From Escherichia coli (GTDB lineage: Bacteria; Pseudomonadota; Gammaproteobacteria; Enterobacterales; Enterobacteriaceae), in assembly GCF_003790525.1 (NCBI RefSeq), contig NZ_CP033635.1: DNA of 64,000 bases; one strand, 5' to 3'. Of the stretch, positions 49,349-53,583 are shown piece after piece; the stretch's first letter is position 1; every line of letters starts with the position of its first letter. Made by a program: the position numbers and the translations under genes. A model generated the notes under the pieces. It searched no databases, was not told the origin of the DNA, and saw only the letters and a program-made list of their open reading frames with translations.

Positions 49349-50128
49349 TTAGTAGCTGCTGGCGCTCTTACCGTCGCCGTGGCCCAGAGCTTTCAGCAGG
49401 CTTGCCAGCAAGCTGGAAGCACCAAAGCGGTAGTGACGCGCATCAGCCCAGTCAGCACCGAACAGTTCATCGGCGATGGAGAGATATTTCTGCGCATCTT
49501 CCGCAGTACGCACGCCGCCCGCCGGTTTGAAACCAACGGTTTTTTCTACGCCCATATCGCGGATCACTTCCATCATGATGCGCGCGCTTTCCGGCGTCGC
49601 ATTCACAGCCACTTTACCGGTAGAGGTTTTGATGAAGTCAGCACCCGCTTTGATGGAGATTTCAGACGCTTTACGGATCAGCGCTTCGTCTTTCAGTTCT
49701 CCGGTTTCAATAATCACTTTCAGCAGGACGTTCGCCGCAGCGCAAGCCTCTTTACAGGCTTTCACCAGGTCAAAACCAACCTGCTCGTTACCCGCCATCA
49801 GCGCGCGGTACGGGAACACCACGTCAACTTCATCGGCACCGTAGGCGATTGCCGCACGGGTTTCTGCCAGCGCGATTTCGATGTCGTCGTTACCGTGTGG
49901 GAAGTTAGTTACCGTAGCGATACGGATTTCCGGGGTGCCCTGCTCTTTCAGAGTTTTGCGAGCAATCGGGATAAAGCGAGGATAGATACAGATAGCGGCG
50001 GTATTGCCGACCGGAGTTTTGGCCTGATGACACAGGGCGATCACTTTCTCATCGGTGTCGTCGTCATTCAGGGTGGTCAGGTCCATCAATTTCAGTGCAC
50101 GCAGGCTGCTTGCTTTCAGATCAGTCAT
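49349..50128 (-). CDS. deoC: Deoxyribose-phosphate aldolase DeoC
   Basis: Translation from [82 protein letters not shown]...; 259 aa. Confidence 0.96.
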
Positions 50129-50172
50129 TTCATTCTCCTGGCTTGTCGCCAATAAAATTCACCTTGCGAGTT

Positions 50173-50188
50173 TGTTAGTATTCTAACA
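50173..50188. promoter_or_regulatory. DeoR operator palindrome at the proximal deo promoter (O2)
   Basis: TGTTAGTATTCTAACA, 15/16 match to the TGTTAGAATTCTAACA palindrome, about 45 bp upstream of the deoC start. Confidence 0.65.
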
Positions 50189-50385
50189 TCTACTCCGCAA
50201 CACACTTCGATGTACATCACAATTAAGGAAATCTACTTACAAGTTTGCATCACTGTAATGCGATCTGGTTCAAATAATTCACTTTCAAATGAATGCGTCA
50301 GTGGTGGCAAACGCATCAGGATCAAAGTGAACATCACGAAACTTCTTACAATGGCGCATCACCTTCGGCATAAAAGGAAAAGAAG

Positions 50386-51936
50386 ATGCCCACTTCTCAT
50401 GAAAATGCACTGCAACAACGTTGCCAGCAAATTGTCACCAGCCCGGTACTTAGCCCGGAGCAGAAGCGCCATTTTCTGGCACTGGAAGCAGAAAACAATC
50501 TGCCTTACCCCGCGTTGCCTGCCGAAGCCCGCCGCGCACTGGATGAGGGTGTAATCTGCGATATGTTTGAAGGTCATGCGCCGTACAAACCGCGCTATGT
50601 CTTACCCGATTACGCCCGTTTTCTGGCGAACGGTTCCGAATGGCTGGAGCTGGAAGGCGCGAAAGATCTTGATGACGCACTCTCTCTGCTGACCATTCTT
50701 TACCACCACGTACCGTCGGTCACATCGATGCCGGTCTACCTGGGGCAACTGGATGCGTTGTTGCAACCGTATGTTAGAATTCTAACACAAGACGAGATCG
50801 ATATTCGAATAAAACGTTTCTGGCGTTACCTCGACAGAACCCTGCCAGACGCCTTTATGCACGCCAATATCGGCCCGTCTGATTCGCCCATCACCCGTGC
50901 AATCTTACGTGCAGATGCAGAGCTGAAGCAGGTTTCACCAAACCTGACCTTTATCTACGATCCTGAAATCACCCCTGATGACCTGCTGCTGGAAGTGGCG
51001 AAGAACATCTGTGAATGTAGCAAACCGCACATCGCCAACGGTCCGGTGCATGATAAAATTTTCACAAAAGGGGGCTACGGGATTGTGAGCTGTTACAACT
51101 CACTGCCGCTGGCGGGTGGTGGCAGCACGCTGGTACGCCTAAACCTGAAAGCCATTGCCGAGCGCAGTGAATCGCTGGAGGACTTCTTTACGCGCACTCT
51201 ACCGCACTACTGCCAACAGCAGATCGCCATCATCGATGCGCGGTGTGAATTCCTCTATCAACAATCACACTTCTTTGAGAATAGCTTCCTGGTGAAAGAA
51301 GGGCTGATTAACCCTGAACGTTTTGTGCCAATGTTTGGCATGTACGGACTGGCGGAAGCAGTTAACTTACTGTGTGAGAAAGAAGGAATTGTCGCACGTT
51401 ACGGTAAAGAAGCCACCGCAAATGAAGTGGGTTATCGCATCAGCGCGCAACTGGCGGAGTTTGTCGCCAATACCCCTGTGAAATATGGCTGGCAAAAACG
51501 CGCCATGTTACACGCACAGTCGGGGATCAGTTCCGATATCGGCACCACGCCGGGCGCGCGTTTACCATATGGCGATGAGCCAGATCCGATTACCCATCTG
51601 CAAACTGTCGCGCCGCATCATGCTTATTATTATTCCGGCATCAGCGACATTCTGACGCTCGACGAAACCATCAAACGTAATCCGCAGGCGCTGGTACAGC
51701 TTTGCCTCGGTGCCTTTAAAGCCGGAATGCGTGAATTTACCGCCAATGTCAGCGGTAACGATCTGGTTCGCGTTACCGGTTATATGGTGCGTTTGTCGGA
51801 TTTAGAAAAATATCGCGCCGAAGGTTCACGCACCAACACCACCTGGCTGGGAGAAGAAGCCGCACGCAACACTCGTATTCTGGAACGTCAGCCGCGCGTG
51901 ATAAGCCATGAACAGCAGATGCGCTTTAGTCAGTAA
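50386..51936 (+). CDS. yjjI: Glycyl-radical-enzyme-like protein YjjI (DUF3029)
   Basis: 516 aa; C-terminal RVTGYMVR resembles the glycyl-radical RVSGY motif; translationally overlaps the downstream activase gene. Confidence 0.9.
50772..50787. promoter_or_regulatory. DeoR operator palindrome at the distal deo promoter (O1), inside the yjjI coding frame
   Basis: Perfect 16-bp palindrome TGTTAGAATTCTAACA exactly 599 bp from the 50173 palindrome. Confidence 0.65.
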
Positions 51937-52771
51937 GATTATCCCCTTCTCCTGCGTTGACGGGCCAGGCAGTCGTCTGGCTCTGTTTTTGCAGGGCTGC
52001 AATCTGCGCTGCAAAAACTGTCACAATCCGTGGACGATGGGGCGCTGTAATGATTGCGGAGAGTGCGTGCCGCAGTGTCCGCATCAGGCGTTGCAGATTA
52101 TCGAAGGCAAAGTGGCGTGGAGCGCGGCTGTTTGCGAGCAATGTGATACCTGCCTGAAGATGTGCCCGCAACATGCCACGCCAATGGCGCAATCCATGAG
52201 CGTGGACGAGGTGCTTAACCATGTCCGCAAAGCGGTGCTGTTTATTGAAGGGATAACGGTAAGCGGCGGCGAAGCCACGACCCAGTTGCCGTTTGTGGTG
52301 GCGCTGTTTACTGCCATCAAAAACGATCCGCAACTGTGCCATCTCACCTGCCTCGTGGACAGTAACGGCATGTTGAGCGAAACCGGCTGGGAAAAATTGC
52401 TCCCGGTGTGTGACGGCGCAATGCTCGATCTCAAAGCGTGGGGGAGCGAATGTCATCAGCAATTAACCGGACGCGATAATCAGCAGATCAAGCGCAGCAT
52501 CTGTTTGCTGGCAGAGCGCGGTAAGCTGGCGGAACTGCGTTTGCTGGTAATCCCTGGCCAGGTGGATTATTTGCAACACATCGAAGAACTGGCGGCGTTA
52601 ATCAAGGGACTTGGCGATGTTCCGGTACGCCTGAACGCGTTTCATGCCCACGGCGTGTATGGCGAGGCGCAAAGCTGGCCGAGCGCCACGCCGGAGGATG
52701 TGGAACAACTGGCTGATGCGTTACGGGAGCGCGGGGTGAGTCGGTTAATATTTCCGGCGCTATATTTGTGA
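51908..52771 (+). CDS. yjjW: Glycyl-radical enzyme activating protein (radical SAM) YjjW
   Basis: 287 aa; radical-SAM CNLRCKNC (Cx3Cx2C) plus ferredoxin-like clusters [12 protein letters not shown] and [12 protein letters not shown]. Confidence 0.9.
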
Positions 52772-52800
52772 CATGCCGGATGTGGCCTACGAAGGGCAAA

Positions 52801-53583
52801 CTACCCACGCATGTTAAACACCTCATTCGTATTATTAAGCAACACTTCGGCAATCTCATCCGCGGGTTCCGGTCGTAACTCGCATAGCACAGCAAACACA
52901 CGGGCTGCCTGTTCAGGGCGATTAGGCTGCCCCTGAAAACCATTGAGCGGCATATCTGGTGCGTCGGTTTCCAGCAACAACGATGCCAGCGGCAGTTTTG
53001 CGATGACATCGCGGGTTTTACTGGCGCGTGGATAGGTGATAGTACCGCCTACGCCGATTTTGTAGCCCAGCTGTACAAACCGTTCAGCCTGTTGCTGGCT
53101 GCCAGAAAATCCGTGGACAACACCAGCACGCGATAAATCGTGGCGTTTAAGATGCATCGCCAGTTTGTCGTGCGTGCGCCGTGAATGCAGGATCACCGGC
53201 AGATCGTAGCGTTTCGCCAGTTTCAGTTGTTCATCAAGCAACCACTGCTGCCTCTCAAATTGCGGATCGTCACCAAAGAGATCCAGGCCGATCTCCCCCA
53301 CCGCCACCACCTTCGCCGGATGCCTTTCCAGCGCCTGCTGTAGCTGATCAAGAGACACATCGCTATGTTTTTCCAACATACCAGGATGCAAGCCCAATGC
53401 GGCATACAGCGGTTGATATTTTTCCGCTAACGCCTGCACGCGGGCAAAATTTTCCGCCTCTGTCGCCGGAACAATGATCTTGCCTACGCCAGCTTGTGCC
53501 GCACGTTGCAGGCTGGCCTCTTCATCGCCACTAAACGGCGGGAAATCAAAATGGCAGTGGGTGTCGATAAAACGGCAAATCAA
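52801..53583 (-). CDS. yjjV: TatD-family metal-dependent hydrolase YjjV
   Basis: 260-aa ORF MICRFIDTHCHFDFPPF... with the TatD HxH motif at the N-terminus. Confidence 0.9.
   Translation of the reverse strand: MICRFIDTHCHFDFPPFSGDEEASLQRAAQAGVGKIIVPATEAENFARVQALAEKYQPLYAALGLHPGMLEKHSDVSLDQLQQALERHPAKVVAVGEIGLDLFGDDPQFERQQWLLDEQLKLAKRYDLPVILHSRRTHDKLAMHLKRHDLSRAGVVHGFSGSQQQAERFVQLGYKIGVGGTITYPRASKTRDVIAKLPLASLLLETDAPDMPLNGFQGQPNRPEQAARVFAVLCELRPEPADEIAEVLLNNTNEVFNMRG

Follow-up and report, generated by a model that had tools for sequence, protein, structure and literature searches.

What reaction do the products of the Escherichia coli genes yjjI and yjjW carry out, and under which conditions? 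The two genes occupy positions 50386 to 52771 of the window, as we call the whole stretch of 64,000 nucleotides analysed here (contig NZ_CP033635.1 of RefSeq assembly GCF_003790525.1). A preliminary description, made from the sequence, saw in them a compact protein resembling a glycyl radical enzyme (GRE) and its radical S-adenosylmethionine (SAM) activase, of no established reaction. Our analysis indicates that yjjI-yjjW is probably a self-contained two-gene glycyl-radical system that is expressed anaerobically. As to the reaction, the description was borne out by a full-text literature search, which had subscription-journal papers outside its coverage and returned expression and regulon data and no assigned substrate or reaction. 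The pair is an already catalogued orphan system, and it appears to be one of the last E. coli glycyl radical systems without an assigned reaction; recent PDB structures of PflD and YbiW contain bound ligands. GRE surveys that use the pyruvate formate-lyase (PFL)-like family signature would probably miss YjjI, because it falls outside the Pfam PFL-like model. Identifying its substrate would give the anaerobic metabolism of enteric and marine organisms, and of some archaea, a further reaction class.

The enzyme, its activase and their catalytic motifs

The genes and the motifs on which the following argument relies are these:

50386 to 51936, plus strand: yjjI coding sequence, 516 residues, YjjI-family glycyl radical enzyme with a minimal 10-strand barrel
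51908 to 52771, plus strand: yjjW coding sequence, 287 residues, radical-SAM glycyl-radical activase
51908 to 51936, plus strand: overlap of yjjI and yjjW, 29 nt, from the list of open reading frames
50593 to 50595, plus strand: codon of R70, an invariant arginine on the first barrel strand, motif PRYVLPDY
51088 to 51099, plus strand: Cys loop S235-C236-Y237-N238, C236 being the predicted thiyl-radical cysteine
51136 to 51138, plus strand: codon of R251, an invariant arginine on the strand following the Cys loop, motif LVRLNL
51769 to 51792, plus strand: glycyl-radical loop R462-V-T-G465-Y-M-V-R469, with the G465 codon at 51778-51780
51998 to 52021, plus strand: YjjW radical-SAM cluster motif C31x3C35x2C38, read from the translation, with a Radical_SAM/Fer4_12 match
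52046 to 52165, plus strand: YjjW ferredoxin-like insert C47x2C50x2C53x3C57 and C76x2C79x2C82x3C86, read from the translation

The length of 516 residues and the overlapping downstream gene given in the preliminary description correspond to the open reading frames of the window. YjjI matches the Pfam family PF11230 'YjjI-like' with 730.6 bits (cut-off 23) over model positions 1-485 of 485, and NCBIfam TIGR04040 with 786.9 bits (cut-off 498.3) over profile positions 1-497 of 497. YjjW scores 397.7 bits against TIGR04041 (cut-off 250.2) and has Pfam matches to Radical_SAM, Fer4_12 and Fer4, those at residues 44-90 being to Fer4_9, Fer4_7 and Fer4; together with the motifs listed above, these matches support its description as a radical-SAM activase with a Cx3Cx2C motif and two ferredoxin-like Cys clusters. 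Both proteins are full-length members with no difference from their families, which are themselves graded only 'hypoth_equivalog' (TIGR04040 and TIGR04041); PF11230 was formerly DUF3029, and the K-12 RefSeq name of YjjI is 'DUF3029 domain-containing protein'. Over positions 50000-53500 the identity to E. coli SMS-3-5 is 100%, and of 5426 complete E. coli genomes 5423 match this region, with yjjI intact over at least 80% of the query in 5413 of the 5426. In the matched genomes the annotation reads YjjI family glycine radical enzyme, YjjW family activase, yjjV and deoC.

Conservation was read from 20 diverse YjjI homologues (33-71% identity), and residue equivalences were taken from the family profile compared with PDB chains, from hhalign to single PflB and NrdD sequences, and from MAFFT addition of PflB and NrdD. 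The glycine-loop fingerprint of the GRE superfamily, RVxG[FWY], occurs as R462-V-T-G465-Y466, with invariant R462 and G465 and a Y466 that is at least 90% conserved, and these residues align with R731/G734/Y735 of PFL and R678/G681/Y682 of NrdD. The RVTGYMVR block had been placed at the end of YjjI; it is indeed present, at R462-R469, but stands 47 residues before the C-terminus. In the Cys loop S235, C236 and N238 are invariant and C236 is the sole invariant cysteine. The profile alignment sets 'YGIaSCYNsL' against 'YAIACCVSPM' of PFL and 'vRvtGYLvk' against 'IRVSGYAVR', and the profile, hhalign and MAFFT all place S235 at PFL C418 and C236 at PFL C419.

Two arginines deserve attention. The stretch P-R70-Y-V-L-P-D75-Y76...G83 aligns with G-R176-I-I-G-D180-Y181...G188 of PFL and with N-C175-M-L-I-D179-L...G187 of NrdD. 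D75-Y76 and G83 fall on PFL D180-Y181 and G188, R70 comes within one residue of PFL R176, and the strand is the one carrying NrdD C175, so that the same active-site position, to within one residue, holds R176 in PFL and a reducing cysteine in NrdD. L-V-R251-L-N-L resembles G-A-R435-A-N-L of PFL and V-I-S-L-N-L of NrdD, by which R251 may correspond to PFL R435; we word this with caution because the automated MAFFT alignment put R251 at PFL K440 instead. The invariant residues are E62, R70, Y71, P74, G83, L102, Y106, G120, D123, D150, F157, H159, L174, N186, T196, P214, S235, C236, N238, R251, F297, E305, H376, Q378, G380, D384, R392, G418, R462 and G465, and a conserved loop, LHAQxGIxxDxxxTPGxRIxxGxEP, is the signature of the YjjI family.

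YjjI has the ten-stranded alpha/beta barrel of the superfamily, a fold also found in ribonucleotide reductases. A search of its sequence against all PDB chains found nothing, and the family profile gave only weak local matches to PFL, YbiW, HPAD and NrdD; hhalign probabilities were moderate, 73% to PflB and 90% to NrdD over 328 columns, and since the alignment to NrdD misplaces the Cys loop by about 8 residues it was not used for residue claims around NrdD C384. The best structural matches are NrdD proteins, the class III ribonucleotide reductases (RNRs). At 516 residues against 760 for PflB and 712 for NrdD, YjjI is far smaller than PFL-type enzymes, as had been noted; it is about 240 to 350 residues shorter than PflB and the PFL-like GREs PflD, YbiW, CutC, IslA, HypD and HPAD. 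Having the fold, the glycine loop, the thiyl cysteine and a paired activase, YjjI belongs to the GRE superfamily and to no characterised subfamily of it, because the hallmarks of NrdD and PFL, compared below, and of the 1,2-eliminases are absent: where the latter (GDH, CutC, IslA, HypD and propanediol (PD) dehydratase) carry G-C-x-E, whose Glu, two positions past the thiyl Cys, is the general base, YjjI has S-C236-Y-N238 with N238 invariant. It is the smallest GRE architecture seen here, essentially a bare barrel, and in structure it is intermediate between PFL-type enzymes and class III RNRs. New here is this placement of YjjI as a minimal barrel that comes closest to NrdD and has a PFL-like Cys loop.

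YjjW is like the GRE activases with ferredoxin-like inserts (the TIGR02494 PFLE_PFLC subfamily and activases of the HypD, CutD and HpdA type) in combining CX3CX2C with two CX2CX2CX3C motifs. Its scores are 132 bits with TIGR02494 and 139 bits with the model of the HypD activase, and it remains below the cut-offs of all characterised activase models.

Pairing with the activase and anaerobic control

Do the two genes work together, and with any other? Open reading frames were called and clustered in 84 loci, and an activase adjoins yjjI in 79 of them, across many phyla that include an archaeon, Actinomycetota and alpha- and gamma-proteobacteria. This pairing, together with the alignment of the Gly loop and the thiyl Cys with PFL G734 and C419, upholds the initial view of a compact GRE-like protein with its activase. 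An overlap of 26-29 nt between the two genes is repeated in Enterobacterales, Gilliamella, a gamma-proteobacterial metagenome-assembled genome (MAG) and Roseobacter, which makes translational coupling probable. The archaeal, actinobacterial, Mollicute and other contexts are all different and have nothing in common. Because no neighbour besides the activase is conserved across phyla, yjjI-yjjW is an autonomous two-gene module.

Anaerobic expression is documented in published work. A chromatin immunoprecipitation (ChIP) peak of FNR at yjjI goes with FNR-dependent anaerobic activation, category 1 (PMC3688515), and both yjjI and yjjW are listed as FNR-activated ('FA') in a study of the HU regulon (PMC2634741); FNR binding in vivo and FNR-dependent induction are therefore taken from these two reports and not from our computations. 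In Yersinia intermedia anaerobic induction is 4.3-fold (PMC3792023), yjjI falls into one cluster with narG and an FNR motif in both E. coli and Salmonella (PMC3228777), and a transcriptome study groups yjjI among respiration genes (PMC6643234). CRP ChIP peaks have been found both in the spacer between deoC and yjjI and within yjjI (PMC4287617).

The predicted promoter elements of yjjI in this spacer are two:

50312 to 50325, plus strand: predicted FNR site CGCAT-CAGG-ATCAA, centred at 50318.5, its right half ATCAA (50321-50325) perfect
50347 to 50352, plus strand: predicted -10 hexamer TACAAT, conserved as TACAAT/TACACT, 21 nt after ATCAA

Both came from phylogenetic footprinting, in which the spacer was aligned from 12 Enterobacterales. 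The conserved blocks are the DeoR operator O2, the CRP-1 site and the CytR/CRP-2 region and, nearer yjjI, GGATCAAA followed by TACAAT/TACACT; GGATCAAA is kept in all 11 Enterobacteriaceae sequences aligned. The transcription start would lie near 50359-50360 and put the FNR centre at about -41.5, a geometry from which we predict that yjjI has its own FNR-type class II anaerobic promoter. Footprinting alone revealed the candidate FNR site: an FNR consensus with up to two mismatches matched, within the spacer, only the CRP-1 site of deoP2. A consensus promoter and terminator scan gave nothing useful for yjjI, deoP1 or deoP2, as is expected of activator-dependent promoters. The published FNR peak would map to about 50292, some 26 bp off the candidate site, given the K-12 annotation and an offset of about 1978 bp between the two K-12 sequence versions. 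The conditions that induce yjjI would include anaerobiosis through FNR, with possible input from CRP, CytR and DeoR.

deo control elements in the codons of yjjI

The preliminary description had yjjI divergent from the deo operon and sharing its control region. The first part stands: deoC, whose ATG is at 50128, lies on the minus strand and is separated from the divergent yjjI by a spacer of 257 bp. The second part stands as well and was understated, since deoP1 with O1, and the operator OE, lie inside the yjjI reading frame; within the spacer there are only O2 and the two CRP/CytR sites of deoP2. The elements are as follows:

50173 to 50188, minus strand: DeoR operator O2 and deoP2 -10 region, exact match TGTTAGAATACTAACA, conserved in Enterobacteriaceae
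50206 to 50274, minus strand: deoP2 CRP-1 (50206-50221), CytR region and CRP-2 (50259-50274), conserved blocks
50772 to 50787, minus strand: DeoR operator O1 and deoP1 -10, yjjI codons 129-134 (YVRILT), perfect palindrome TGTTAGAATTCTAACA, 599 bp from O2
51051 to 51066, minus strand: DeoR operator OE, yjjI codons 222-227 (HDKIFT), weaker site TGTGAAAATTTTATCA, 279 bp from O1

A search with the DeoR operator consensus returned exactly two strong sites, O2 and O1. The operator sequences and the spacings of 599 and 279 bp agree with the classical deo control region, and the names CRP-1, CytR and CRP-2 are the established ones of the deo literature. That classical description (deoP1/deoP2, O1/O2/OE, CytR-CRP) predates yjjI, whereas here O1/deoP1 and OE are codons of yjjI. 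O1, with 0-2 mismatches, sits at +386 in every yjjI examined from Enterobacteriaceae, Hafnia and Edwardsiella, and OE is detectable at +665 in 10 of 13 of these genes, all but those of Kosakonia, Pseudocitrobacter and Edwardsiella. In Proteus, Providencia, Gilliamella, Aliivibrio and Shewanella, whose yjjI does not adjoin deo, neither site occurs.

An unbiased scan of synonymous codon identity in 22 Enterobacteriaceae yjjI genes (gene mean 0.56) ranked the OE window first (1.00), the O1 window second (0.99), the yjjW start overlap third (0.93) and the stretch just upstream of the deoP1 -10 fourth (0.89). O1 and OE fall in loops that are variable across the YjjI protein family. The gene is a clean example of DNA with two uses, two DeoR operators and a neighbour's promoter being written in its codons with synonymous sites invariant; the demonstration that deo operators are conserved codons of yjjI is new, as is the yjjI promoter model. 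In the same scan the fifth rank (0.85) went to 51271-51291, codons 296-302 (FFENSFL), a window with no recognisable operator or promoter motif, where two-codon amino acids and codon bias may be enough to account for the conservation.

What could this arrangement mean for expression? Since deoP1/O1 is inside yjjI, transcription from deoP1 runs antisense across the first ~390 nt of yjjI and across its promoter, and the predicted yjjI start (~50360, plus strand) faces the deoP1 start (~50772, minus strand) over ~410 bp. DeoR loops between O2, O1 and OE would enclose the yjjI promoter. The centre of CRP-2, at 50266.5, is 93.5 bp both from the deoP2 start (~50173) and from the predicted yjjI start. 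Transcriptional interference or a shared CRP input between the yjjI and deo promoters is possible, and control of yjjI by DeoR and CytR, raised in the preliminary description, is a well-founded question to test.

Three smaller observations concern the same DNA. In the deoP2 CRP/CytR region at 50206-50274, the CRP ChIP site assigned to yjjI/deoC reads TGTGATGTATATCGAA (PMC4287617). On the minus strand at 50706-50721, TGTGACCGACGGTACG corresponds to the intragenic CRP site CGTACCGTCGGTCACA found by ChIP followed by sequencing in yjjI of enterotoxigenic E. coli H10407 (PMC4287617); seen in the sense direction of deo, it comes ~60 bp downstream of where deoP1 starts. A 574-residue NCBI protein (P0005 in our set), with 99% identity to YjjI across 91% of the query, carries in addition a DeoC/LacD aldolase Pfam match; because yjjI and deoC are divergent, this fusion is probably an assembly or gene-call artefact.

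Reaction class and substrate

How would the system work? Transcription would start from the compact FNR-dependent promoter of class II type just 5' of yjjI, and translation of yjjW would be coupled to that of yjjI through the 29-nt overlap. YjjW would hold one SAM-binding [4Fe-4S] cluster and two ferredoxin-like auxiliary clusters; it would cleave SAM, and the 5'-deoxyadenosyl radical would take a hydrogen from Gly465 of YjjI. At each turnover the stored glycyl radical would move to Cys236 on the opposing finger loop, and the resulting thiyl radical would abstract a hydrogen atom from the substrate. The single conserved cysteine, the serine at the position of PFL C418, and the lack of a second NrdD cysteine, a Zn ribbon, an ATP cone and a CoA-type extension together point to single-thiyl chemistry, of elimination, lyase or decarboxylation type, rather than PFL acyl transfer or RNR reduction. 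This single-Cys argument and the predicted catalytic residues G465 and C236 are new. Read at the level of residues, R70 and R251, at what may be the positions of the PFL carboxylate clamp R176/R435, with R392, K213, H159, H376, Q378, D384 and E398, suggest a small polar anionic metabolite bearing a carboxylate or phosphate; R70, R251, R392, H159, H376 and D384 are newly proposed as candidate binding residues. The substrate is probably a common cellular metabolite, because no transporter or downstream enzyme accompanies the pair across phyla.

Several points weigh against this picture. In the literature searched, no experiment on a glycyl radical or on any activity of YjjI was found. The left half of the candidate FNR site has three mismatches to TTGAT-N4-ATCAA, and the start from which its position is counted is itself only predicted. 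The equivalence of R251 and PFL R435 rests on RLNL matching RANL, MAFFT having given K440. Outside Enterobacterales, Orbales and Pasteurellales there is no conserved metabolic neighbour among 168 neighbours from ~35 loci (Vibrio, Photobacterium, Shewanella, alpha-proteobacterial and other), in which LysR regulators (17) are the only recurrent family and aldehyde dehydrogenases (4) come next.

Is YjjI perhaps one of the known enzymes in reduced form, or no enzyme at all? That it is a stripped-down, alternative class III RNR is very improbable. NrdD proteins are its top structural matches, and some homologues show faint precomputed matches to PF13597 (NRDD); E. coli YjjI itself has no PF13597 match at E<=0.1 and none at gathering level. 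NrdD has a second active-site cysteine (C175 in E. coli, C79 in T4), and in the hhalign alignment N174-C175 falls in a gap beside YjjI R70-Y71. NrdD ends in a CX2C...CX2C Zn ribbon, CYECGFTGEFECTSKGFTCPKCG, whereas YjjI residues 430-462 hold only C440, which is not conserved. The ATP cone, the specificity (effector) site and the N-terminal 120 residues of NrdD are absent from YjjI, whose alignment starts at NrdD residue 120; YjjI has one invariant cysteine, is ~200 residues shorter and has a shorter Cys loop. E. coli also keeps nrdDG, and nrdD mutants do not grow under strict anaerobiosis although they carry yjjI. With its defining features (second Cys, Zn ribbon, ATP cone, NRDD match) missing, we rejected the RNR assignment. 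A miniature pyruvate or 2-ketoacid formate-lyase deserves just as little credence, in spite of the RVTGY fingerprint, the PFL-like alignment of the Cys loop and the two candidate arginines (R70 within one residue of R176, R251 at R435 by the RxNL motif or at K440 in MAFFT). In PflB (PDB 1h16 and 1cm5) the residues C418-C419 form an adjacent pair, which in YjjI is S235-C236 with a single cysteine, so that an acyl-thioester intermediate is impossible; moreover, ~240 PFL residues are missing, and neither PF02901 nor PF01228 (PFL-like, Gly_radical) matches YjjI at E<=0.1. This assignment was rejected as well. We also consider it most improbable that YjjI is a decayed, non-catalytic relic kept for the deo regulatory DNA inside it. 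Its most synonymously constrained codons are those of the deo operators and not the catalytic ones, and truncated variants exist in some E. coli records; yet amino acid identity across Enterobacteriaceae is 85-90% against a synonymous codon identity of 0.56, which indicates that the protein is under purifying selection, lineages where yjjI has no deo overlap, including archaea and Actinomycetota, keep the Gly and Cys motifs invariant, and the gene is intact in nearly all E. coli genomes, as given above.

There remain two doubtful proposals for the substrate of this single-Cys enzyme, each with evidence of its own. One places YjjI in anaerobic nucleoside catabolism, acting on ribose or deoxyribose 1- or 5-phosphate or a related compound by NrdD-like 3'-H abstraction and elimination without reduction. 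Class III RNRs are the closest fold relatives (hhalign to NrdD as above), and deoP1 with the DeoR operators is embedded in yjjI. Of the 84 loci, only those of Enterobacteriaceae, Hafnia and Edwardsiella have deoCABD diverging from yjjI, and a NupC-family transporter (TIGR00804, 502 bits) stands right after yjjW in 6 deo-adjacent loci. In eight Gilliamella loci (L039-L046) yjjI-yjjW closes a co-directional cluster of deoD, a nucleoside:H+ symporter (nupG), add, a 5'-nucleotidase, cdd, deoA and sometimes a second 5'-nucleotidase, with a 14-nt gap ahead of yjjI in one of them (L041:1656-12374). A Haemophilus influenzae genome note lists, within a single region of 3.1 kb, the YjjI enzyme, a radical SAM protein and a NupC/NupG transporter (PMC5609409), and in a gamma-proteobacterial MAG the pair is surrounded by deoB, an amidohydrolase and a PfkB/Q_salvage gene. 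Against this, Enterobacterales, Orbales and Pasteurellales are sister groups, and because they are related one ancestral arrangement could explain both the yjjW-nupC and the deo linkage; Proteus and Providencia keep yjjI-yjjW with deo not adjacent; no nucleoside gene recurs among the 168 neighbours (Vibrionales, Shewanella, alpha-proteobacteria, Actinomycetota, the archaeon and others); and a PFL-type Arg pair suits a phosphate no better than a carboxylate. The other proposal is a small carboxylate, such as a 2-oxo or 2-hydroxy acid, an oxamate-like compound or formate as hydrogen donor, tied to anaerobic respiration or nitrogen metabolism. It draws on the invariant R70 and R251 at the likely positions of the carboxylate-binding R176 and R435, on the PFL-like length and sequence of the Cys loop, on the co-clustering of yjjI with narG and nitrate/nitrite genes and its predicted role in nitrogen metabolism (PMC3228777), and on its grouping with respiration genes (PMC6643234). 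The family is, besides, concentrated in facultative, often nitrate-respiring Proteobacteria and not in strict fermenters, and in Shewanella an ExaC-type acetaldehyde dehydrogenase, a Zn alcohol dehydrogenase and a flavocytochrome adjoin the pair. However, shared FNR control by itself explains the co-expression, PFL C418, needed for C-C cleavage, is a serine in YjjI, the Arg equivalences were drawn partly by eye, and no nitrogen-oxide or formate genes recur among the 168 neighbours.

We take the nucleoside link as real but restricted to its lineage, and so as a tentative lead. For Enterobacterales, Orbales and Pasteurellales we lean, with considerable doubt, towards a nucleoside-derived sugar phosphate as substrate. 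Its most specific form, an NrdD-derived single-Cys enzyme that performs on such a sugar phosphate a previously undescribed radical elimination akin to the first half of the RNR mechanism, is a longer shot still. If true, it would amount to an anaerobic branch of nucleoside catabolism in enteric and related bacteria, co-wired with deo through the embedded DeoR operators and the convergent promoters.

How widespread is the family? An exhaustive HMMER scan of 1.84 billion cluster representatives gave only 540 with E<=0.001, ~25 of them full length, so the family is narrow. When one genome per species was scanned, at least 592 proved to be carriers, the best 80 of which belong to Enterobacterales, Orbales (Gilliamella), Vibrionales, Shewanella, Rhodobacteraceae/Hyphomicrobiales and Woeseiaceae. 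Distant members occur in an archaeon (its contig also encodes eIF-1A, eIF-2B and NMD3), in Actinomycetota, in Oligoflexia and on a contig of 30% GC in which TGA encodes Trp.

Some local arrangements may be recorded. In the window, yjjV (minus strand, a TatD-like metal-dependent hydrolase) is convergent with yjjW (plus strand), with ~29-30 bp between the stop codons (52772-52800); the promoter and terminator scan returned no terminator after yjjW, and this interval has no terminator-like hairpin. In three Shewanella loci (L053, L055 and L084; for example L053:3648-12448) the ExaC-type acetaldehyde dehydrogenase (961 bits, cut-off 900) is directly upstream of yjjI-yjjW, and a Zn alcohol dehydrogenase, a LysR regulator and a pair of flavocytochrome and cytochrome c3 are also nearby. 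The Mollicute-like contig (30% GC, TGA=Trp) carries a full-length YjjI homologue (L004:1264-2805) with SCYN and RVTGY intact, no activase within its 3.9 kb and a Bmp-type ABC permease immediately upstream; we considered this permease as a nucleoside link and did not count it, because it falls far below every NCBIfam cut-off. The archaeal (L001:9621-10364) and actinobacterial (L088:10557-11309) activases have 247-250 residues and no Fer4 in the precomputed Pfam list, like PflA and in contrast to the 287-residue YjjW with its two auxiliary-cluster motifs.

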